Below are positions 5,397-16,480 of a stretch of DNA of 64,000 nucleotides, piece after piece. Every line of letters begins with the position of its first letter. The first letter of the stretch is position 1. This DNA comes from Aulosira sp. ZfuVER01 (GTDB lineage Bacteria; Cyanobacteriota; Cyanobacteriia; Cyanobacteriales; Nostocaceae): positions 64,001 to 128,000 of the forward strand of contig JAVRCV020000032.1 of NCBI GenBank assembly GCA_034530615.2, given 5' to 3'. Made by a program: the position numbers and the translations under genes. The notes under the pieces are model-generated. The model saw only the letters and a program-made list of their open reading frames with translations, made no database searches and was not told the DNA's origin.

Positions 5397-5765
5397 ATGT
5401 TAAAACTTACCTACACCGAAAACAGCTTTAACTTAGAATATCTCGAAGAATCTTTAGAAGATTGGGTAAATCAAAGAGTCATTCTCACTTTGCATTCTGG
5501 GACTAATATCTACATCGAATCGAGTCAGGCTGCATTTCTTGTGTCGGCTGAATCGTCCCATCTGGCAGATCTAAAGAAACTCAATCAAGCAAATATTTTA
5601 GAAATTTGTCCTTGCGATGCCTCTGCTGTGGAAGTTATTCTTAAAGGTACTTGGATAACATCCAATTCAGAAAGCGCAACAGGTATCTTTGTCACTGTAC
5701 TAAGTAAATCTGCGGAGTTATTACTGGAAACACTCTCGCAAACCGAACAATTTTGTTACGCTTGA
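5397..5765 (+). CDS. Conserved cyanobacterial hypothetical protein (alr0857-like family)
   Basis: MLKLTYTENSFNLEYL..LEDWVNQRVIL N-terminus and VEVILKGTW..GIFV C-terminus, recognised from memory of this family. Confidence 0.7.
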   Translation: MLKLTYTENSFNLEYLEESLEDWVNQRVILTLHSGTNIYIESSQAAFLVSAESSHLADLKKLNQANILEICPCDASAVEVILKGTWITSNSESATGIFVTVLSKSAELLLETLSQTEQFCYA

Positions 5766-5790: not shown

Positions 5791-5875
5791 TGCTGTTCGC
5801 GGGACTCTGGTGCGACTTCCGAACCCGATCTGTGAAATCGTCCTAGCCAGTCGTGCCGCCTTTCCCCGAACAGCA
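5791..5875 (+). ncRNA. Candidate structured RNA (long GC-rich three-segment hairpin), function unknown
   Basis: Stem TGCTGTTCG(C)GGGA/TCCCCGAACAGCA; second stem TGGTGCGACT/AGTCGTGCCG with three G-U pairs that work only on the + strand; apical CGAT-CTGTGAA-ATCG. No U-tract after it. Confidence 0.5.
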
Positions 5876-6150
5876 TCCCCATAAATCTAGAGACTTAATA
5901 CTAATTGATGAAGTGAAAATTATAAATCATTCTTAGGGTGAATTAACTTTTTAGCTTGAATTAGCCAATTATTGAAGAGTTGGTTTTTCTAAAAGCATGA
6001 TGTGTGTATGAGAGTTTAAAATCAGGGCTAATCGATGGCCATAAGATGCAATCTACAAGTAGCTAAAGATAAAGCAGCAAAATTTTACTCTCAGACTTTA
6101 GGTTCAATCCCGCTAGATTGAATAAAACTTCTTATTGGAGCAAATTAATC

Positions 6151-8574
6151 ATGGATAGATTAAAGCAAATCCAATTAAAATTAAAGTTTTTTTTTGGTTC
6201 ACTTTTCTATGCGAGTTATGCTCCAAAAGCATTCTTATACACTCGTCAGCGAGATAAAATAGAACGCCAGTTTCTGATAACACCAACAGAGGAAGGTTTT
6301 GGCAAACCAGGAAAGTTACTGCGTGCTGAACAAACAGCAAGAGGTGCTAATTTCTATTTCGAGCTTGCAGAATTGGAAGTTTGTTTTCTGGCTGAAGATT
6401 TAGTCCGAATTGACTGGAAACCAGGTATACCGCCTATCCCTTACGCAATTGCTCAAAATGAATGGCAAGATGTAGAAACTAAGTTGGCACAGACAGATAA
6501 TAACTGCTTTGTGTCCAGTAATAGTCTCAAAGTAATTGTTGAAGTGGATGGTAGTTTAAAATTTTGCGATCGCTCTGGTCAAGTCATCCGCGAAGAACTA
6601 CCGCCCCAGAGCAAAAACCAAGGATGGATTCATCAAGCACAACTGCGCCCAGAAGAACGCATTTATGGATTAGGAGAACGGGCTTCTTCACTCAATCTCC
6701 GAGCCGCTAAAGATGAACAGCAACAAAGTAAAACCTATCGGATGTGGAACTATGATGCTGCTGGGATGTATCCTCCAGGTTCAGACCCGATGTATCTCTG
6801 CATTCCTCTCTATTTAGGTTTGCACTCACTTGGCAGTTATTTAATTTTTTATGAAAATTCTTTTGATGCTAATTTTACATTTGCGGAAACTGCCAAAGCT
6901 GACTTTACTGGGGGATCGCTGCGTTATTATTTTACCTCTGGTTCGCCGAGACAATTACTAGAGCGCTACACCGAATTAACTGGACGTGCGCCTCTACCTC
7001 CGCGATGGGCGTTAGGCTATCACCAATCTAAATGGGGGTATCGTACAGAAGATGCGGTGAGGGAGGAAGCGAGAGCTTTTCAATATCACAAGCTACCTTT
7101 AAGCGCTATACATCTAGATATTGACTGTCAAGTTGGATACCGAGCCTTCACTATCGACCCAGAACGCTTTCCGAAATTGGCGAGTTTTACACAAGAACTG
7201 GGCGAACTGGGAGTGCAATTTATTGCCATTCTCAACCCAGGAATTAAATACAGTCGCCACAGTAACTTATTTTTAGAAGGTCAAATATTAGATGGATTTT
7301 GCAAACTCCCCAATGGCAAACTTGTAGTTGCGCCTGTGTGGCCTGGTTGGTGCGTATTTCCAGATTTTACCAATCCTAAGGTTCGCAGTTGGTGGAGTCG
7401 GCAGTATGCATATTTGCTGGATGTGGGTGTGGCAGGTTTTTGGCATGATATGAATGAACCTGCTGCTTTTATTACTTCTGGCGATCGCTCTTTACCAAAA
7501 GTCACTCAACATTATATGGAAGGTAGAGGTGGCGATCACCGCGAAGCTCATAATATTTACGGATTATTGCAAGCAGAAGCAGGCTATGAAAGTTTGCGTC
7601 AATACCGCCAAGAAAAACGACCTTTCATAGTTTCCCGTGCAGGTTGGGCAGGACTTCAGCGCTATGCTTGGACTTGGACAGGTGATGTTGAATGTACTTG
7701 GAGTGCGTTACGCCAAACAATATCAACAATTGTTGGCTTAGGGCTTTCTGGGATTCCCTACAGCGGCCCGGATATCGGTGGTTTCCAGGGTAATCCAAGT
7801 GCAGAACTATACTTACGTTGGTTCCAAATGGCAACGTTCTTCACGTTTTACCGAACTCACTCGTCTAATAACGTGGAACACCGCACGCCCTGGACTTATG
7901 GCGAACCTTACCTGAGTATCATTCGCTCCTTCTTGCAATTGCGCTATCGCCTACTGCCCTATTTTTATACTTTATCCTGGGAAGCAACACAAAAAGGTTA
8001 TCCCCCCGTGCGTCCGCTGTTTTGGGCTGCTGATGATAACACGACACTTTGGGATGTGGAAGACGCTTTCTTGTTAGGTGATGCTTTACTAGTTTGTCCC
8101 ATTGTCGAAGAGGGAGGGCGAGCGCGACAAGTGATTTTACTGCCAGGACGTTGGTATAGTTTTTGGGATGACACAGTATTTGCGGGTGGACAACAGGTAA
8201 ATCTTTCAGCACCGCTAGAAACTATTCCTGTGTTGGTGAAAGCTGGAAGTATTTTGCCTATGGAAGAAAATAAACAACTGACTCTCCACCTTTACCCACC
8301 TGTAGAAGGTGAAAGTTTTACTCAGCTATACAGCGATGCAGGTGATGGTTATGGAGCATCGAGACTGGATAAATTCCATCTGGTGAGATCGGCAAATGGT
8401 TTAGAACTTACTTGGCAAGAACAAGGAGATTATTCTTTCCCTTACACTAGCGTACAGTTGCATGTGCATGGGATGAAACTTCAACAAGCTTGGGTAGATG
8501 ATGCAGAAGTGAATTTTCAGGGACAACAGTTAAAGTGCGATCGCTTTTTAAAGGTTCGCTTGCAAGCAGAGTAA
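6151..8574 (+). CDS. Glycoside hydrolase family 31 alpha-glucosidase
   Basis: GFWHDMNEPA nucleophile motif, WTGDV, GPDIGGF. ATG at 6151 follows GGAG (the ORF track starts at a TTG at 6118). Confidence 0.93.
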   Translation: MDRLKQIQLKLKFFFGSLFYASYAPKAFLYTRQRDKIERQFLITPTEEGFGKPGKLLRAEQTARGANFYFELAELEVCFLAEDLVRIDWKPGIPPIPYAIAQNEWQDVETKLAQTDNNCFVSSNSLKVIVEVDGSLKFCDRSGQVIREELPPQSKNQGWIHQAQLRPEERIYGLGERASSLNLRAAKDEQQQSKTYRMWNYDAAGMYPPGSDPMYLCIPLYLGLHSLGSYLIFYENSFDANFTFAETAKADFTGGSLRYYFTSGSPRQLLERYTELTGRAPLPPRWALGYHQSKWGYRTEDAVREEARAFQYHKLPLSAIHLDIDCQVGYRAFTIDPERFPKLASFTQELGELGVQFIAILNPGIKYSRHSNLFLEGQILDGFCKLPNGKLVVAPVWPGWCVFPDFTNPKVRSWWSRQYAYLLDVGVAGFWHDMNEPAAFITSGDRSLPKVTQHYMEGRGGDHREAHNIYGLLQAEAGYESLRQYRQEKRPFIVSRAGWAGLQRYAWTWTGDVECTWSALRQTISTIVGLGLSGIPYSGPDIGGFQGNPSAELYLRWFQMATFFTFYRTHSSNNVEHRTPWTYGEPYLSIIRSFLQLRYRLLPYFYTLSWEATQKGYPPVRPLFWAADDNTTLWDVEDAFLLGDALLVCPIVEEGGRARQVILLPGRWYSFWDDTVFAGGQQVNLSAPLETIPVLVKAGSILPMEENKQLTLHLYPPVEGESFTQLYSDAGDGYGASRLDKFHLVRSANGLELTWQEQGDYSFPYTSVQLHVHGMKLQQAWVDDAEVNFQGQQLKCDRFLKVRLQAE

Positions 8575-8721
8575 TACTAATTCCAAGACAATAGCGATCG
8601 CACCTTACCCTACCAGTATCTAAATTACCAAGCACTCGGGTTCTGATGGGAGAAGATAGACTTTTTATAGAAGGATTCTTACAGGTTGTATAAAAAGTTT
8701 AATCCAGGTAGGTATCAGGTC

Positions 8722-10653
8722 ATGGTGCGTTTAAAAATTTGGCAGTGGGTTGTCCTAGCAACACCGATCGCTTTCATCATCATTTTCTTACTGATAGCCG
8801 CAGGTTCCCAGATTCATACATGGGGGATTAATTGGATTTGGGCGGTGTTTACGCTGTTATTTGTGGGCTGGCGTTGGTTGCTAGTGAAATGGACTCGACC
8901 AGAGGTAGAACAACTAGAAGCAGCTTTAGCACAAGTCAGCGAAGAATTAGCAGCAACGGCGGACACGGAACAGTTACCCACCGGGAATGGTGCTACCAAT
9001 CAAGCTCAAGCAGTCTTAAATGAAGTTTTGCAAGCAGCACAAAACGATCGCCCGATTTGGGAAGATTGGCCAACTTTCTGGACGCGATGCCAAAATCTTG
9101 TTGTAGCGATCGCGCATATCTACCATCCTGAAGTTAAATATCCCCTGCTGAATATTTACGTTACCCAAGCCTACGGGTTAATACGGGGGACAGTTGATGA
9201 CCTCGATCAATGGATGCAGAAGCTATCACCTGCTTTAAATCAAGTTACAGTTGGGCAAGCTTACCAAGCTTATGAAGTCTACCGCAAGTTAGAACCATCC
9301 GCCCGCAAACTCTTTCAAGCTTGGAACTGGGCACAGTGGCTATTAAATCCAGCCGCAGCTTTAGCGAAAAAAGCCAGTCAAAGCTACACAAGCCAAGCAA
9401 ATCAGCAATTGCTGGTAAATTTAAGCCAAATGCTGCGAGAAGCTGCTTTGCGGAATTTGTGTCGGCAAGCGATCGCTCTTTATAGTGGTAGTACTTTACC
9501 AACTGCTGAGTTTTCTTCCCCAACGCCGACGCTACCTAAAGCTAAAACCCAAACCCTCAAAGAAATACTAGCCCAAGCAGAACCTGCGGAAAGCGTTGCG
9601 CAAAAACCTGTGAATATTCTGCTTGTAGGGCGCACAGGTTCGGGAAAAAGCAGTTTAATTAACACATTATTTCAGTCAGAACTAGCAGCCGTTGATGTGT
9701 TACCTAGTACCGATCAAATTCAGAGTTACCAATGGCAGACTTCCAGTAAAGAAACACTGGAGCTTTGGGATACTCCTGGTTATGAGCAAGTCAACCGTTC
9801 TGATTTTCGGGAATTAGTTTTAGACTATGCCACCAAAGCAGATTTACTATTGTTAGTCACACCCGCCCTCGATCCGGCGCTGCAAATGGATGTAGACTTC
9901 CTCAAAGATATGAAGGCGGAAGTTACAGATTTACCTGTAATTACGATAGTTACCCAAGTAGATCGTCTGCGTCCCATCCGAGAATGGCAACCTCCTTATA
10001 ACTGGGAATGGGGCGATCGCCCGAAGGAAATCTCTATTCGGGAAGCTACACAGTATCGGGTGCAATTGCTGGGGGATTTTTCTAAGTTAGTTTTACCTGT
10101 AGTGACAGGGGACAGCAAAACTAATCGCTCTGCTTGGGGAATAGAAGCTTTATCTTTAGGATTAGTAGATGCGATCGCCCCGGCTAAACAACTGCGCCTA
10201 GCTCGTTTTTTACGCAATCTGGAAGCGCGTACTGTGGCGGCGGCGAAAATTATCGACAACTACACCTTCCAGATGGCGACAACTCAAGGACTGACATCGC
10301 TACTCAAAAGTCCAGTTCTCCAGTTTATTTCTACACTATCAACCGGCTCTCCTACTCTGGCATACTTGCTAGCAGAAAAAATTCCCGTGGAACAGTTACC
10401 GATTGTAATTGGTAAGCTGCAAATGGCTTATGAGCTTTTCTCTTTATTAAATACAGGTGATTCTAGTAAACCCAACTTTGATTTACTAGCTTTGTGGCCG
10501 TTGCTGCTGGAAAATACTGGCACAAGCGATCGCAACGCTTGGGCGTTTGGTCATGCTGTAGTTGAGTACTGGACTCAAAACCTCACAGTTGAACAACTTC
10601 AAGAACGGTTTAATTACTATTTATCTACCAACCCCTTAGGGGGTAGGAAATAG
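8722..10653 (+). CDS. Membrane-anchored GTPase family protein (Era/YeeP-like G domain)
   Basis: Two N-terminal TM helices; GRTGSGKSS (G1), DTPG (G3), TQVD (G4). ATG at 8722. Confidence 0.82.
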   Translation: MVRLKIWQWVVLATPIAFIIIFLLIAAGSQIHTWGINWIWAVFTLLFVGWRWLLVKWTRPEVEQLEAALAQVSEELAATADTEQLPTGNGATNQAQAVLNEVLQAAQNDRPIWEDWPTFWTRCQNLVVAIAHIYHPEVKYPLLNIYVTQAYGLIRGTVDDLDQWMQKLSPALNQVTVGQAYQAYEVYRKLEPSARKLFQAWNWAQWLLNPAAALAKKASQSYTSQANQQLLVNLSQMLREAALRNLCRQAIALYSGSTLPTAEFSSPTPTLPKAKTQTLKEILAQAEPAESVAQKPVNILLVGRTGSGKSSLINTLFQSELAAVDVLPSTDQIQSYQWQTSSKETLELWDTPGYEQVNRSDFRELVLDYATKADLLLLVTPALDPALQMDVDFLKDMKAEVTDLPVITIVTQVDRLRPIREWQPPYNWEWGDRPKEISIREATQYRVQLLGDFSKLVLPVVTGDSKTNRSAWGIEALSLGLVDAIAPAKQLRLARFLRNLEARTVAAAKIIDNYTFQMATTQGLTSLLKSPVLQFISTLSTGSPTLAYLLAEKIPVEQLPIVIGKLQMAYELFSLLNTGDSSKPNFDLLALWPLLLENTGTSDRNAWAFGHAVVEYWTQNLTVEQLQERFNYYLSTNPLGGRK

Positions 10654-10661
10654 GATTTGCT

Positions 10662-11717
10662 TCAAACCAAAGCGAAGCTAGATTCTGTATCTGCTTCTGG
10701 TTCATAACCATGAGCTAATTGTTCAATTGCTCGATCGATCAAATCTAAACCTTGATTCACAGTTTCTACTAAACTGAGTTGTCCGCGCAAATCAGCAGCA
10801 CCGACAAAGCCTTTAGCATACCAAGTCATGTGCTTCCGGGCTTGACGGACACCGCGATCGCCTTTATATTCCCACAAAGCCTGTAAATGTTCTCGCGCGC
10901 ATTCCAAGCGTTGAATTGGTGTTGGTGGCGGTAACAGTTCCCCAGTTTTTAAGAAGTAATCAACTTCTCCCACCAAAAACGGATAACCTAAAGTCCCACG
11001 AGAACACATTACCCCGTCAGCGCCAGTTTGCTCCAAGCATTTCACCGCCGCCTCCACGGAGAAAATATCTCCATTACCAATTACTGGAATCGAAAGTATT
11101 TCTTTGACACGTCCAATCCATTCCCAGCGAGCATTGCCATTGTATCCTTGGGCACGGGTGCGTCCATGCACTGTAATCATTTGTGCCCCTGCATCTTCCA
11201 TGCGCTTGGCAAAATCGAGAATGGTAATTTCTTTATCATTCCAGCCAATCCGGGTTTTTACTGTTACTGGTACATCAACTGCCTTCACCACTTCCCGAAC
11301 AATTGCTTCGGCTACTTCTGGTTGGCGTAACAGCGAAGAACCACCACCATTTTTAGTAATTTTATTTACCGGACAGCCCATATTGATATCAACAGTATCA
11401 GCACCTTCCGCAACTGCTTTTACTGCTGCTTCCGCCAAAAAATCGGGACGACAATCAAATAATTGGATGCTAATTGGTCGTTCATTAGGATCGACCTCCA
11501 TAATTTTGGGTAACTCTTTAACATAGTGCAACCCCGTAGCATTCACCATTTCCGTGTACATCATCGAATCTGGTGCATAGCGACGTACCAAACGGCGAAA
11601 CACCATATCCGTCACCCCAGATAAAGGCGACTGCAAAACCCGGCTGTTAACTTCAAGCGATCCAATTTTCAGGGGTTGGGAGAGTCTAGCTTTGAGGCTA
11701 AGAGAGAGAGTTAGCAT
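10662..11717 (-). CDS. dusB: tRNA-dihydrouridine synthase B
   Basis: SPLSGVTD, DINMGCPV, KTRIGW, HGRTR, GNGDI. Confidence 0.93.
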   Translation of the reverse strand: MLTLSLSLKARLSQPLKIGSLEVNSRVLQSPLSGVTDMVFRRLVRRYAPDSMMYTEMVNATGLHYVKELPKIMEVDPNERPISIQLFDCRPDFLAEAAVKAVAEGADTVDINMGCPVNKITKNGGGSSLLRQPEVAEAIVREVVKAVDVPVTVKTRIGWNDKEITILDFAKRMEDAGAQMITVHGRTRAQGYNGNARWEWIGRVKEILSIPVIGNGDIFSVEAAVKCLEQTGADGVMCSRGTLGYPFLVGEVDYFLKTGELLPPPTPIQRLECAREHLQALWEYKGDRGVRQARKHMTWYAKGFVGAADLRGQLSLVETVNQGLDLIDRAIEQLAHGYEPEADTESSFALV

Positions 11718-11930
11718 ATAAACAATTCAAAATGCAAAATTAATGATATCTCTTAAATCAAGATGCTTGTTGATGGAATTTACTTGTAATTGAAGCGATC
11801 GCCAAACATAACCCAAAATAGACTATTGATTTAATAGTAGCAATAAGCTCTGACGCTCAGGTTGTCACAAGTCAAAAGACAAACGCCAAGAATTCTACGG
11901 CTAGTTTTGACACAGTTTAGATTGGAAACT

Positions 11931-12911
11931 TTACTGTGTCTGAAATATATTTTGCACCATTTTTTTGTCTAAACTATCCGCAGCTCGATCCAGTGCTGCT
12001 ATCTCGCCAGAGTCCAAATGCCAACCTAAAGCACCAATATTCTCTTGTGCTTGTTTCAAAGACTTTGCGCCAGGGATGGGAATAGTTCCTTTACTGCTGC
12101 ACCAGTTAATCGCTACTTGTGACATAGTTTTATTTCTTGACTGAGCGATTTCTCGTAAACAAGCTAAAAGCGGGTCAATACCTGGCAATAACTGCCTAAA
12201 CAATAGACCCCGAATGCCTTTAGGAAGAGGCCCTGTCTTTGAGTATTTTCCTGTTAATAGCCCCAATCCCAAAGGGCTATAGGCAATCAGTTTAATTCCC
12301 ATTTCGTCGCAAACTTCTTTTAGCCCTAGTTGAGTAACAGGATATGTGGATAGTAGAGAGTATTGAACTTGCAAAGTTGCGATCGCCACACCGCGATCGC
12401 TAAATTTTTTATATACTCGTTGCAGACGCTTTGGCCCGTAATTGGATAAGCCTACAGCTTTGACTAATCCTTGCTCATAAAGATCAGCCAGTCCATCCAA
12501 AAGCCTCTCTTCTTGCCAAGGTGCATAGTTTGCTGTAGACCAATGCATTTGCACTAAGTCTACATTTCTGCCTAGGCGTTGGGCAGAAGCTTTACCAGCT
12601 TGTATCATTGATTGTCTCGTCCATCTCCAGGGGTAAGCAGCTAGCTTAGTGGCGATGCAAATTTTTTCGCTGTTGATACCTTGATATGCTCGAGAAAATT
12701 TTCCTAGAAGTATCTCACTGCGTCCCTTCAATTTGCCAGTACCGTAAGAATCTCCCGTGTCAAATAAAGTCACACCATTGCTGACACAAAGGTTAAAGAC
12801 GGCTTGTAACTCCTCATCCATGCTTTGATCGTATCCCCAGAGCAGCTGGTTTCCCCATGCCCAAGTTCCACAGCCCATAGTTGGAAGCGATAGTTCCTGG
12901 CTAATCTGCAT
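11931..12911 (-). CDS. Aldo/keto reductase
   Basis: GCGTWAWG, FDTGDSYG, ATK, QMHW, GLSNY, AYSPLGLGLLTGKY, PIPGAK. Likely ATG at 12911. Confidence 0.9.
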   Translation of the reverse strand: MQISQELSLPTMGCGTWAWGNQLLWGYDQSMDEELQAVFNLCVSNGVTLFDTGDSYGTGKLKGRSEILLGKFSRAYQGINSEKICIATKLAAYPWRWTRQSMIQAGKASAQRLGRNVDLVQMHWSTANYAPWQEERLLDGLADLYEQGLVKAVGLSNYGPKRLQRVYKKFSDRGVAIATLQVQYSLLSTYPVTQLGLKEVCDEMGIKLIAYSPLGLGLLTGKYSKTGPLPKGIRGLLFRQLLPGIDPLLACLREIAQSRNKTMSQVAINWCSSKGTIPIPGAKSLKQAQENIGALGWHLDSGEIAALDRAADSLDKKMVQNIFQTQ

Positions 12912-12991
12912 ATTTATCCCTGAAAACAAAGTTTCTCAAAGTTCATTATCAGATAATTTCTGCGAACTATTGTTAGCAATTGAGAGGAGGG

Positions 12992-13035
12992 TGTAGCTGT
13001 TTGACAATGATGCGTGCTACATTTGTATTACAAAT
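12992..13035. promoter_or_regulatory. Palindromic candidate operator/promoter region of the VWA-ARPP locus
   Basis: TGTAGC-N18-GCTACA (12992-13021) encloses TTGACA (13001-13006). Perfect ATTTGTA-T-TACAAAT at 13021-13035. No canonical -10 at 17-bp spacing. Confidence 0.4.
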
Positions 13036-13041
13036 TCTCCT

Positions 13042-13137
13042 AACCTTGAGATTTAGGTGTTGTCTATCAACCTATTTGCGGCATATTTAAGCGATCGCAG
13101 CAGCATTAAATTCTCAATTTTGTGTAGTACGATGCTC
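13042..13137 (+). ncRNA. Candidate structured ncRNA or 5' leader upstream of the TROVE-like gene
   Basis: 5' TTGAGA-TTTA-G-GTGTTG (13046-13062) can pair with CAGCAT-TAAA-T-TCTCAA (13101-13117), with two single-nt bulges and G-U pairs favouring the + strand. Internal stem TGCG-GC..GC-GAT-CGCA. Confidence 0.4.
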
Positions 13138-13186
13138 CAAGCTCAAAATAAAGATAATTATTCGTATATTTTTTTACTTTCTGTTT

Positions 13187-14617
13187 ATGAATGCTAACTC
13201 TCCCAACCGCGTTGAACAGGTAGCGCGAGAAGATTTAGTTATGTTTATCAATGCTTGTCTCGCTTGCACTGGACAGCGTGAGTTTTATGATGATGCTTAT
13301 GGTCAACGAGTATCAATTGACTTTTTACATGATTATATTCTCGGTAATTACCGCTTGCTTTATGCTCGTTCCTTAGCAGCCGGGATTAACCATTTCAATC
13401 AAGCGCAAATTATTCTCAAGCTATTGGCAACGGGAAAGTATACACTCCCAGAACATAAGCAAGAGGAAGGTGCATTAATTGCCCATGCACTCAATACTTT
13501 ACCTCCACAACGCGCCTGGGCTGTGTTGCAGCAGTTGCGTCACCAAAGAATTAACAATCGCCGCAGCCGGGCGATCGCGCGTGACTACTTACAGCAACGG
13601 CGCGATATGAGTTTTGATGCTGTGAAGTATCGCCCAAAAGTGCGGGCGATCGCAGCTCATGCGCACCTGAAACTGCAAGGTGAATTAGGTACTTTTCTCT
13701 TCCGTAACTGGAAACAAAAGATTTACACAACTGAATTATTTGAGAAATTTCGCCAAGCCCACTACAGTGCAGAAGCGATTTACAATTTGCCTTTCACTGT
13801 AGCGGAAGGTTTAGCAACTAAGCACAATATTAAGCGCGATGTATTTTTAACCCGAATTCAACAGCAAATGACTATCGGTGAAAAGTTGCGTTTGCAAGGT
13901 GCAGCAGAACGTACTGAGAAGGTGGAAATTGACCTAGATTTCGGACGTTTGCCGTTAACTAAATTGGCATTGTATATCCTGTCTTTACCTTTAGAAACTA
14001 GAAAACAGCAACGGGAGATTTTTACTCAAGCTTTAGAGCGATCGGCGCGTTTCGTGCTAAAAAAAGCACCATTAAAACTCGGGAAAGTTGCAGCGGTTTT
14101 AGATTGTAGCTACTCCAGTTCTGGCTCGAGCGAAAAGCGCCGTCGCCCTTTGGGTGTAGCACTAGCTACTCACTACTTATTACAAGCAGCATCAAAAGAA
14201 TATCGTCCTTTTTGGACAATACCTGTAGAAGATGCTTTGCAGGTACGCGCCCACGGACAAACTGACTTAGCAACACCATTATTAGCAGCCTTGGGTTCTG
14301 GTGCAGACTTAGTTGTAATTGTCTCTGATGGTTGCGAAAACTATCCGCCCAAAGGTGCGGCGGAAGTATTGCGGGTATTTCGGAATAAATTAGACCCTTG
14401 GCGACGGACTTCTATTATTCATTGCAATCCCGTGTTTAATTCCGAAGACTTTTCTTTGCGTAACCTCAGCCCATCCATCCCCACAGTGGGATTAAGAGAT
14501 GCGGAAGATTTACCCACAATGTTGGGCTTTGCCCGTTTTGCTGATGGTTCTGCACCCTTATCAGAATTAGAAGCATATTTGGCTGAACGAGTACAACAGA
14601 TGTTAACTGGAACATGA
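13187..14617 (+). CDS. Helical N-domain + C-terminal VWA (MIDAS) protein; divergent Ro60/TROVE-like
   Basis: C-terminal VAAVLDCSYSS (DxSxS), GQTDLA (T) and VVIVSDGCEN (D) make a complete MIDAS. The ~295-aa N-region is basic and looks helical. The TROVE assignment is inferred from architecture. Confidence 0.6.
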   Translation: MNANSPNRVEQVAREDLVMFINACLACTGQREFYDDAYGQRVSIDFLHDYILGNYRLLYARSLAAGINHFNQAQIILKLLATGKYTLPEHKQEEGALIAHALNTLPPQRAWAVLQQLRHQRINNRRSRAIARDYLQQRRDMSFDAVKYRPKVRAIAAHAHLKLQGELGTFLFRNWKQKIYTTELFEKFRQAHYSAEAIYNLPFTVAEGLATKHNIKRDVFLTRIQQQMTIGEKLRLQGAAERTEKVEIDLDFGRLPLTKLALYILSLPLETRKQQREIFTQALERSARFVLKKAPLKLGKVAAVLDCSYSSSGSSEKRRRPLGVALATHYLLQAASKEYRPFWTIPVEDALQVRAHGQTDLATPLLAALGSGADLVVIVSDGCENYPPKGAAEVLRVFRNKLDPWRRTSIIHCNPVFNSEDFSLRNLSPSIPTVGLRDAEDLPTMLGFARFADGSAPLSELEAYLAERVQQMLTGT

Positions 14618-14685
14618 CAGTTGAGCCATTCATACCTTCGTAAACAATTCAATTGAGAAAACTCCGCGTACCTCTGCGCTAACTC

Positions 14686-14796
14686 ATACCATTTCACCAA
14701 AAATTATGATGCAGACGCAAACCCTGGAACCTTTGCTGAGTCTCAATTTCTTAATTTTTAATTTTGAATTTTGAATTTTGAATTTTGAATTGGTAT
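14686..14796. mobile_element. ATACCA..TGGTAT MITE-like element carrying a TTTTGAA heptamer tract, inserted into another short repeat
   Basis: Ends ATACCATTTCA and TGAATTGGTAT; (ATTTTGA)x4 at about 14761-14788. The flanks CTCCGCGTACCTCTGCGCTAACTC and AGCGTCCCTTTGCGTTAAA join into one CTCTGCG-type repeat. Confidence 0.65.
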
Positions 14797-14831
14797 AAGC
14801 GTCCCTTTGCGTTAAAAAACGCTCTTTAAAT

Positions 14832-16010
14832 ATGACAACCAAACAGAAATTACTAACAGATATATCCTTAAAAGGATTAGAAATTGCACCTTCCCAAATT
14901 CGAGGCGCAGTCCGCATTGTACCGCTACTGCGCCGTGAGGTGCGGGGAGATTTACGTTTAGTGCAACGTGGTTATAACGAAGATCTCACCATTGTTTCCT
15001 TGGAAGGGAAAATAACCGAACCAGGGATGAAATATTACTCTTATGTACCTCACGGTTTGGTAATTTCTTGGAGTGAGGATGGTAGCCCCATAGCAGCCTT
15101 TGGCGGACAAATGCTCAAGCCTGACGGTAAACGTTTGGATTGTGGTTGTGCAAGCGTGCGGTTAATGCATCGCATGGCCAAGCGGGAATCCAAGAATCAA
15201 CTCAGATTTCTTCCCTTACACTTGGCAATGGAAGGTTTTCTTTCGCTGTTTTTCTCAGGCCCAAATATTGCTTGGAATGAGTATTCTAAGTATGCTCTTT
15301 CTCAAGGACTGGGTTCACGCTACGAAATGTCTGTCAGTGGGCGTTATATTGCAGGATTAGAAGACGCTTTGCGTGTATTTGAGATTCATCCTAGACAGGT
15401 TGGGGTGTTGGTATTTGTGGCTGAGACTTTAGCCTCGGCTTTTGTGGTTCCGACTCCAGAGGATTACCGCGCTTTGCACACCAGTTTACTAGAGGACTTC
15501 TACGGTGAATTGATTTATGAGTACAGTCTGATGTTTGACACGCCTTTTCCTATGGATTTATCTGTGGATGACTCTAAAATTAATAGTTTGGCAGATTTGC
15601 GAAGTGCGATCGCAAAAATGCGATCTGATTGGGCATCTTTTCAAGGGTTTATGGCAGAAGGACTGTTGCAACGTCAATTACGTTCTCAAAGAGTTTACAC
15701 TGCTGGGCCGTTTGTATTGCAAAGATTTATTACTAACCTGCTTCCTAAAGAAGAAAACCATATCGGGGAAGCAATTGTTCGGGACAATGGAGAACTGGAG
15801 TATCTGAAAACTTATCGCCTCTCAGCCGCCCAAACCCGTCGAGTTTATTTACTTAGTCAACTAGATTTGTATAACTGGAACTTGGATGCTACGGCTAAAG
15901 CACTGGGGAACACCAGTGAAGAATTCGTACTACGGTTAGAAACTGCTGGCTTTGGTTATTTACTCAATCAACAAGTGCGAGATGCTGCTAGGAAAAAGTC
16001 TAAAAAATGA
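14832..16010 (+). CDS. ARPP-2-like domain protein with C-terminal Fis-type HTH-like segment
   Basis: N-terminus LKGLEIAPSQIRGAVRIVPLLR, YVPHGLV, LRFLPLHLAMEGFL, LEDALRVFEIH recalled as the ARPP-2 family. C-terminal LLSQLDLYNWNLDATAKALG resembles a Fis/NtrC HTH. Needs HMM confirmation. Confidence 0.55.
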   Translation: MTTKQKLLTDISLKGLEIAPSQIRGAVRIVPLLRREVRGDLRLVQRGYNEDLTIVSLEGKITEPGMKYYSYVPHGLVISWSEDGSPIAAFGGQMLKPDGKRLDCGCASVRLMHRMAKRESKNQLRFLPLHLAMEGFLSLFFSGPNIAWNEYSKYALSQGLGSRYEMSVSGRYIAGLEDALRVFEIHPRQVGVLVFVAETLASAFVVPTPEDYRALHTSLLEDFYGELIYEYSLMFDTPFPMDLSVDDSKINSLADLRSAIAKMRSDWASFQGFMAEGLLQRQLRSQRVYTAGPFVLQRFITNLLPKEENHIGEAIVRDNGELEYLKTYRLSAAQTRRVYLLSQLDLYNWNLDATAKALGNTSEEFVLRLETAGFGYLLNQQVRDAARKKSKK

Positions 16011-16039: not shown

Positions 16040-16480
16040 TCAAGCAAATTGCCGAATTTGAGCTACATCCATAACTGCTTTAGCTAACTCATCTAAGTTA
16101 ATCGGCTTGTGCAGAAACTTTTGATAACCAGCTAAATATGCATATTTTCGATCGTCATCCATAACATACGCGCTCAGTGCGATCGCGGGAGTTCTTCTAC
16201 CTTGCGCTGAGTCAAGTTTTTTAACTTTCCGTAGCAGGGAGTAGCCATCTTCATCGGGTAAACAAATATCGCTAATTAAAACATCTGGTTGGAAGCATGA
16301 GATTATTTCTAGAGCTTCACTTGCTGAATTCACTGCCATAACCTCTGCGCCTTCGAGTTCAAACAGGATGGTGAGTAGCTTTCTTGTGTCAAGGTCATCA
16401 TCAACAACAAGTAAGCGTAGACCCTTAAATGAAATGGGTTTGTTAAGCATGATTTCGACCATAGTAAAAGTTTTACACAT
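16040..16480 (-). CDS. Single-domain response regulator (CheY-like receiver)
   Basis: LLVVDDD, PDVLISDICLPDEDGY, IALSA, KP. Confidence 0.92.
   Translation of the reverse strand: MCKTFTMVEIMLNKPISFKGLRLLVVDDDLDTRKLLTILFELEGAEVMAVNSASEALEIISCFQPDVLISDICLPDEDGYSLLRKVKKLDSAQGRRTPAIALSAYVMDDDRKYAYLAGYQKFLHKPINLDELAKAVMDVAQIRQFA

Follow-up and report, generated by a model that had tools for sequence, protein, structure and literature searches.

Which RNA, if any, does a divergent Ro60-like protein work with in a cyanobacterium that already has a canonical Rsr? This question is raised by a 64,000-nt stretch of contig JAVRCV020000032.1 from Aulosira sp. ZfuVER01 (the window, whose positions serve as coordinates throughout), where two co-oriented genes and a structured RNA element appear to form one system. 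The best explanation, to which we assign a probability of roughly 55%, is that the gene 1 protein forms a ring which, together with the RNA and the ARPP-2 protein encoded by gene 2, makes up a ribonucleoprotein (RNP) that senses damaged RNA and signals via a helix-turn-helix (HTH) segment. That the three parts form one particle is probable, and this particle is likely a second, undescribed class of Ro/Y-like RNP that coexists with canonical Rsr. The parts are the following:

5791..5875, plus strand: structured RNA element of about 85 nt, single copy in the genome
13187..14617, plus strand: gene 1, 476 amino acids, with a helical domain at about 5-293 and a VWA domain at about 297-455; a divergent Ro60/TROVE fold is predicted
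14832..16010, plus strand: gene 2, 392 amino acids, with an ARPP-2 domain at 11-292 and a C-terminal Fis-type HTH-like segment at about 329-375

Sequence comparison shows the RNA element to be a conserved, base-paired structure; it is found together with gene 1 and has been retained even where the two are detached. The window copy folds with a z-score of -5.2, and none of 200 shuffled sequences folded as well. It consists of a terminal stem (P1) from which a single pyrimidine (C5800) bulges out, a small internal loop and a second stem (P2), with a conserved unpaired UUCCG and then an apical hairpin (P3) at the apex. In relatives, one or two copies of about 85 nt with pairing ends lie upstream of the gene 1 homologs. 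We aligned 67 distinct copies, namely 66 of the 85 non-duplicate matches to a seed pattern plus the window copy, leaving out two opposite-strand non-matches and near-identical copies. Within the three helices of this alignment 94.2% of the cells were paired, 18 of 27 pairs showed two-sided change, and covariation amounted to 0.452, as compared to 0.215 in shuffled and 0.07-0.14 in slid alignments. The invariant core G-[C]-GGGA/UCCC-C belonged to the seed pattern and is uninformative by itself. With the covariance model the window copy scored 103 bits, as the sole match in the window and in the genome, and the model also matched 13 held-out loci. The element has the layout of a Y RNA (80-130 nt, a long stem of 5' and 3' ends with a bulge, and an internal loop). 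It belongs to no Rfam family and gave no YrlA (RF02553) or tRNA match at E<=10; ARAGORN called no gene in it, and a T-loop pattern was found in 0 of the 67 copies. UUCCG is constant in 64 of these copies, and CCGAA is present in the loop of 42.

Could the element be a DNA repeat or a chance hairpin that is unrelated to the proteins? Many short repeats do occur in the cyanobacterial intergenic regions near the gene pair. Nevertheless, there are only one or two element copies per genome, exclusively in genomes that bear the protein, and the copies display compensatory changes and G-U pairs on one strand. This explanation is already largely refuted, and we regard it as extremely improbable.

To describe the distribution, we used 80 loci that by record title come from cyanobacteria, myxobacteria, Armatimonadota, an actinobacterium and others. 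The covariance model found the element upstream of the gene 1 homolog, on the same strand, in 78 of them; the two misses are L133, in which gene 1 is N-terminally truncated, and L138, which also lacks ARPP-2. The nearest copy starts within 300 nt of gene 1 in 70 loci and within 700 nt in 77, and 18 loci have two copies. Among 61 cyanobacterial genomes the RNA, a close gene 1 homolog and a strong ARPP-2 match were all found in the same 21, and the other 40, including three with only a distant paralog, gave no RNA match. In an actinobacterial family of 41 genomes, protein and RNA were adjacent in the same 7 (six of which were outside the model-building set) and the RNA was found in 0 of the 34 others. 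The rule that a Y RNA lies within 4 kb of its protein gene on the same strand holds in 78 of the 80 related loci and not in the Aulosira genome, where the distance is 7.3 kb.

These positions also bear on whether the element is an RNA of its own or a cis-acting 5' leader, bound by the gene 1 or ARPP-2 protein for autoregulation of the operon and never released as a small RNA. A leader would agree with the invariable sense orientation, with a start of the closest copy no more than 300 nt from gene 1 in 70 of the 78 loci, and with the actinobacterial elements, which end about 25-40 nt before the protein match. However, in three genomes (G000, which is the Aulosira genome, G006 and G008) the RNA stands apart from gene 1 and has other genes downstream of it; in the two closest relatives it is on another contig, with the GTPase gene downstream of it. 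The detached RNA is identical at 85/86 and 78/86 positions in these two relatives, as compared to an identity of ∼44% in the RNA 3' flank, ∼71% in the intergenic stretch around 12992 and 89-91% in gene 1. Conservation of the element after the loss of cis contact therefore argues, at the level of sequence comparison, for an RNA that acts in trans. The tandem copies in 18 loci, a second, free-standing copy in the actinobacterial genome G374, the pairing of 5' and 3' ends, and the sister-clade arrays of 2-5 units with variable inserts that are described below all speak against a leader as well, and we consider it improbable.

The protein encoded by gene 1 has no Pfam or NCBIfam match (no Pfam family at E<=1, including TROVE PF05731 and vWA_Ro60 PF25045), and a PDB sequence search with the gene 1 profile returned nothing significant. 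A preliminary description of the locus, made from the window's letters, had nevertheless proposed a Ro60/TROVE-like protein, pointing to a basic helical region and to a VWA domain with an intact MIDAS (metal ion-dependent adhesion site), and structural comparison bears this out. An AlphaFold2 model based on 101 homologs reached a predicted local distance difference test score (pLDDT) of 95.2 and a predicted template modelling score (pTM) of 0.92. In a Foldseek search with this model the top 12 rows were all Ro60/TROVE structures (best E 8.6e-8, template modelling score 0.59, 11-16% identity). A VIA search gave 1yvp_A, which we take to be Xenopus Ro, with Z 18.6 (root-mean-square deviation (rmsd) 4.5 over 421 residues), the Ro60 of phage phiLo (9l5y) with Z 17.2 (rmsd 4.7 over 406 residues) and Deinococcus Rsr with Z 13.3, while VWA-only matches ranked below these at <=12.5. 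From such whole-length matches, gene 1 is predicted to encode a helical-repeat ring closed by the VWA domain, as in Ro60. The MIDAS residues are D306-x-S308-x-S310, T359 and D381, with the D/S/S kept in 100, 99 and 100 of the 101 aligned homologs. The basic helical stretch (R109, N123-R128, K147-R149, H158 and H160) is nearly invariant, as is Y148 alongside K147 and H158. In Ro60 and Rsr a KYxxR...H motif marks the Y-RNA-binding helices; the KYR...HxH stretch of gene 1 and the KYQQR...H stretch of Rsr showed a weak HH alignment (probability 1.9%, E 0.026).

The canonical Rsr of the Aulosira genome is encoded elsewhere (G000:C15:140431-142035; L154). It has 534 amino acids and matches both TROVE and vWA_Ro60, and the region upstream of it, up to C15:142500, contains a tRNA match and a weak YrlA match well below the Rfam cut-off, which served as control for the negative outcome at the element. 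Since the genome has this separate Rsr, gene 1 represents a second lineage and not an Rsr ortholog. Canonical Rsr is present in 29 of the 61 related genomes, some of which are without the new system.

Gene 2 matches Pfam ARPP-2 (PF22549) with E 5e-117 and 390 bits, as compared to a curated cut-off of 27, and it also weakly matches ARPP-1. In the neighbourhood survey, 76 of the 80 loci, from several phyla, had ARPP-2 after gene 1 in the same orientation (one of the four misses is cut off by a contig end), and a single metagenomic protein, P0140, fuses the two. The preliminary description was thus right to expect an ARPP-2-like partner that stays linked to gene 1 in other genomes. For the gene 1-ARPP-2 pair the predicted complex scored 0.66, versus 0.00 for the best control; the mark for such scores, which 116 of 157 solved pairs reached as opposed to 2 of 215 mismatched ones, is roughly applicable here. 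Contact agreement between runs was at least 88% and the pLDDT of the partner at least 69. In the predicted interface, ARPP-2 residues 20-23 and 243-267 lie on VWA residues 358-402, beside the MIDAS, and the invariant N385 and P387 of gene 1 and Q22 of ARPP-2 take part. The ARPP-2 body had no fold match (Foldseek at E<=0.001, VIA at Z>=5), and as it was not folded separately a new fold is not shown. As neither fold search turned up a solved structure resembling ARPP-2, the complex score is unlikely to reflect structures already known to the predictor. The prediction thus supports binding of gene 1 and ARPP-2 without demonstrating it.

Is ARPP-2 an enzyme? C133 and Q138 of ARPP-1 are invariant in 11 ARPP-1 sequences, whereas the Cys columns of ARPP-2 peak at 17 of 60, and the Cys/Gln region aligns weakly with ARPP-2 (probability 34%). 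Judged from these alignments, ARPP-2 is without the conserved Cys and Gln of ARPP-1, and it is probably a non-catalytic ARPP. A different active site would nonetheless be imaginable, given its invariant polar residues (H130, E184, Q189, H216, D222 and E313), and the system would then be an anti-phage or counter-defence module in which ARPP-2 acts on ADP-ribosylated or cleaved RNA. The patchy distribution (21/61 and 7/41 genomes), the related Ro-like + ARPP-1 pair in viral contigs, and the ARG-centred conflict systems in which parts of PMC9503650 place ARPP proteins, with a proposed action on ribose, would all be in line with that. However, besides the missing Cys and Gln, PADLOC (2023 library) gave one weak match only (pPIWI_RE_Z, E 0.053), and the genes are 80-95% conserved within genera, at a stable locus that is not a defence island. 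We hold a defence role of this kind to be rather improbable. The function that the preliminary description suggested, in stress, RNA damage or the response to phage, is likewise conjectural.

At its C-terminus, ARPP-2 ends in an HTH-like segment, in agreement with the preliminary description, although the structural scores are modest. The top 5 VIA rows were of Fis/NtrC type (Z 4.4-4.9), with the DNA-binding domains of Fis, NtrX and NtrC1 at Z 4.8-4.9 and NtrC1 superposing with an rmsd of 1.9 over 46 residues. Across 60 ARPP-2 homologs L330, Q334 and L344 are invariant, and W349 and A355 are found in 59.

Of 12 viral-contig loci with a distant gene 1 relative, 11 have an ARPP-1-like gene nearby; L026 and L027 are near-duplicates of each other. 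A scaffold pattern, RGACY-N6-9-RAYTTC[ACT]G, which was designed after inspecting both RNA sets, is present as 2-5 upstream units in 7 of 10 viral loci and also in 64 of the 67 elements. In the viral-clade loci it had 23 matches in 12.6 kb of upstream sequence versus none in 193 kb elsewhere; every one of the 23 could close a long-range stem. The covariance model found nothing convincing at ARPP-1-clade loci (best 18 bits), so that the link rests on the short pattern, and no YrlA match was obtained for the units in the five loci scanned. The arrays are located as follows:

L026, L028, L030 and L032-L035, within 1.3 kb upstream of the Ro-like gene: viral-contig scaffold arrays, e.g. L030:2740-3720 and L028:4020-4720

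Several of the units enclose tRNA-like inserts, with Rfam tRNA matches at L030:3508-3580, L028:4638-4706 and L035:3733-3802. By analogy with the two-module YrlA, this suggests that the sister-clade arrays combine a constant protein-binding scaffold with a variable cargo. Two further arrangements were seen in this wider family. In a third, cyanobacterial type (L144:2928-5260, L145 and L023) a Ro-like paralog of 451 amino acids with an altered basic motif overlaps an ARPP-1 gene that retains Cys and Gln. At L031:600-3600, relaxed ARAGORN settings gave nine tRNA-like calls upstream of a scaffold-less Ro-like + ARPP-1 pair.

A mechanism for the sensing RNP can be sketched from these data. The gene 1 protein would fold as a Ro60-like ring with an intact MIDAS, as model and sequence predict. 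Its basic helices (RxNNRR, KYR and HxH) would, with good probability, grip the constant scaffold P1/GACU loop/P2/UUCMG, as Ro60 does with Y RNA. We would equally expect ARPP-2 to dock on the VWA helices beside the MIDAS, where the modelled complex places it. The subsequent steps are more tentative. By analogy to Ro60, the RNA might gate the central cavity, such that the end of a damaged or misfolded RNA enters, the MIDAS region relays this and ARPP-2 switches and acts through its Fis-like HTH; this is the weakest step and doubtful at present, as is a transcriptional output.

The same particle may alternatively have an RNA-handling output, the RNA tethering the ring to a host ribonuclease or repair enzyme that is encoded elsewhere, in a RYPER-like manner, or serving as decoy, with ARPP-2 as an adaptor or RNA-end binder. 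Y RNAs do tether Ro60 to PNPase according to parts of PMC4201824, and phiLo Ro60 uses host PNPase with no adjacent effector gene in the passages of PMC12135203 used here; the tRNA-like inserts of the sister-clade units and an HTH recognition helix that is ill-suited to DNA point in the same direction. On the other hand, the Fis-like segment is conserved across the 60 ARPP-2 homologs, the apical hairpin of the ARPP-2-clade RNA is short and leaves little space for an effector module, and the genome already has a canonical Rsr and a YrlA-like RNA. On balance we find such an output unlikely, if a serious contender.

Several observations weigh against a damage-sensing RNP with transcriptional output. 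DNA binding by the ARPP-2 HTH is doubtful because the presumed recognition helix, R368 apart, varies and is acidic, with E/D at 363-364, and because the structural Z is only 4.8-4.9. Gene 1 aligns only weakly to the genome's canonical Rsr, with the HH values given above. The known Ro-binding motifs GNCGAAN0-1G and GGUCCGA are each present in only 1 of the 67 element copies, and the bulged base is U instead of C in several held-out matches. In most cases the distance from the end of the element to the start codon is no more than tens of bases, as one would also expect of a cis leader. The fusion rests on P0140, as a search among longer proteins gave no further one (weak evidence). No scaffold motif was found at the cyanobacterial Ro-like + ARPP-1 loci L023, L144 and L145 or in 3 of the 10 viral loci, meaning that the RNA is not near every member of the wider family. 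Lastly, the compared genomes are kin and not independent, and the co-occurrence counts overstate the number of events.

A wider reading is that the Ro fold, ARPP and scaffold RNA make up an undescribed, modular RNP superfamily of bacteria and viruses, acting in cells as an RNA-gated transcription switch and in phages as a tRNA decoy that can be programmed or as a platform for repair. The constant scaffold, read by the Ro ring, would then show exchangeable inserts that set the ARPP target or response: a short hairpin in cells, and in viral contigs arrays among which there are tRNA mimics. Taken jointly, these propositions are speculative and unlikely to hold in full.

How did the RNA become separated from gene 1 in this lineage? 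The features around the system are:

5397..5765, plus strand: open reading frame (ORF) of 122 amino acids that marks the ancestral site, without Pfam match
5890..13186: intervening block with a GH31 glycosidase, a GTPase-domain protein, Dus, an aldo/keto reductase and a palindromic intergenic stretch, outside the system
11931-12929, minus strand: aldo/keto reductase, 5' neighbour of the gene pair
16040-16480, minus strand: response regulator, 3' neighbour of the gene pair

The nearest homologs are from Nostocales cyanobacteria (95% identity). In six loci of relatives the order is (PhoD), the 122-aa ORF, RNA, RNA, gene 1, gene 2 and response regulator, and the block at 5890-13186 is absent. The window has the same genes, but gene 1 lies 7.3 kb beyond the first RNA, across this block, and the second RNA is missing. 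The block is thus what separates the RNA from gene 1 in the Aulosira lineage and no component of the system. The 122-aa ORF is found beside the RNA in 26 of the 80 loci, all cyanobacterial by record title, and is probably a neighbour confined to Nostocales rather than a component. In some relatives (L018, L069) the RNA and gene 1 flank it on either side.

The preliminary description had the two genes as a compact, co-oriented unit amid unrelated genes, and noted that no RtcB or nuclease gene adjoins them. The ORFs and their aldo/keto reductase and response regulator flanks match the former statement, and the latter extends to the 80 loci, in which no such gene recurs (clusters judged by eye, top 40). 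No third gene conserved across phyla was seen in these loci; two neighbour clusters (24-28 loci) were set aside, since they look like shadow ORFs over the pair. The spacer between gene 1 and gene 2 holds short tandem repeats and is very variable in length, with a heptamer run at window positions 14750-14792 and long degenerate 21-nt repeats in L002-L014; its folding is at chance level (z -1.6). In a few genomes gene 1 or gene 2 is interrupted by in-frame stops or gives a split match (L046, L049, L019 and L093), which suggests occasional decay.

The dedicated RNA had initially been placed directly before gene 1, as palindromes plus a structured RNA at 12992-13180. The palindromes are there and a dedicated structured RNA element does exist, but its real location is 7.3 kb upstream of gene 1, at 5791-5875, and the proposed stretch folds at chance level: the z-score was -0.49 for 12930-13190, and +0.24, -0.77 and -0.92 for three sub-windows. 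Among the compared loci, the 12992-13130 stretch occurs only in the Aulosira genome and its two closest relatives (78-80% identity). Being no better than shuffles and restricted to two close kin, it was rejected as a structured RNA. A sigma70-like site at 12980-13008 was also dropped, as one site stands against 1.2 expected by chance. In the two closest relatives the palindromic block 12990-13036 has been kept better than the remaining spacer; it may serve the divergent aldo/keto reductase and gene 1 pair as promoter or operator since the rearrangement.

Bacterial Ro60/Y-RNA biology has so far comprised one orthologous family (Rsr with YrlA/Yrn), found via TROVE annotation. The second Ro lineage goes undetected by the TROVE hidden Markov model and would have a fixed partner and an unlisted RNA family of its own in cyanobacteria, myxobacteria, actinobacteria and others. 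It supplies context for Pfam's orphan ARPP-2 and yields a candidate for what the Ro VWA domain binds; the role of the MIDAS in Ro60 is called unclear in parts of PMC12135203. Viral arrays in which tRNA mimics would sit in a scaffold are a further lead. The system can be put to the test directly in Nostoc sp. PCC 7120, where BAB73830.1 and BAB73831.1 are members of the clusters. The tags alr2131/alr2132, inferred by way of a numbering offset, did not turn up in the searchable part of Supplementary Data 1 of the Nostoc R-DeeP data (PMC11797042), which is uninformative. In the literature searched we found no description of the Ro-fold/ARPP pair or of the ∼85-nt RNA; a brief earlier mention of ARPP with TROVE is possible, and some homologs are already auto-named 'TROVE domain-containing' in databases.

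How, then, does this system compare with those already known? RtcR is a CARF-AAA-HTH activator that senses damaged tRNA. The new system would resemble it in that RNA damage near an Rsr/Y system would reach a Fis-type HTH output; unlike RtcR, it has no CARF or AAA domain, and the sensor would be the Ro RNP itself. With the ARPP-1 (PF20208) ADP-ribose conflict systems it shares an ARPP protein, gene 2 being ARPP-2 with a weak ARPP-1 match, yet gene 2 is without Cys/Gln and has a Fis-like HTH in addition. The parts of PMC9503650 used here give ARG, HIRAN, WYL and deacetylase as ARPP contexts and leave TROVE unmentioned. Thermus phage phiLo has a Ro60 (PDB 9l5y) with two upstream stem-bulge-stem RNAs, Yrl1 and Yrl2, that carry CGAA in the internal bulge (parts of PMC12135203). 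The fold of gene 1 and the CCGAA in the loops of many elements are like phiLo, whereas the sequence identity is 12%, the constant motif of the element is UUCCG and not CGAA, and the same parts name no ARPP partner. The closest parallel is bacterial Rsr with YrlA, YrlB or Yrn1. In its model, gene 1 shares the helical ring and the VWA/MIDAS fold, and the element is like the Y RNAs described in parts of PMC4201824 in its size of 80-130 nt, its long terminal stem, bulge and internal loop, and its upstream, same-strand and often duplicated position. Unlike Rsr, gene 1 has 13-16% identity and lacks the TROVE/vWA_Ro60 Pfam matches, has a dedicated ARPP-2 partner instead of RtcB/PNPase, and coexists with a canonical Rsr and a YrlA-like locus; unlike YrlA, the element is without GNCGAAN0-1G, tRNA-like D/T arms and an Rfam YrlA match. 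Taken together, these comparisons point to a system that would work like a Ro60-Y RNP, that falls outside the Rsr/YrlA family by sequence tests, and whose RNA family appears to be new.

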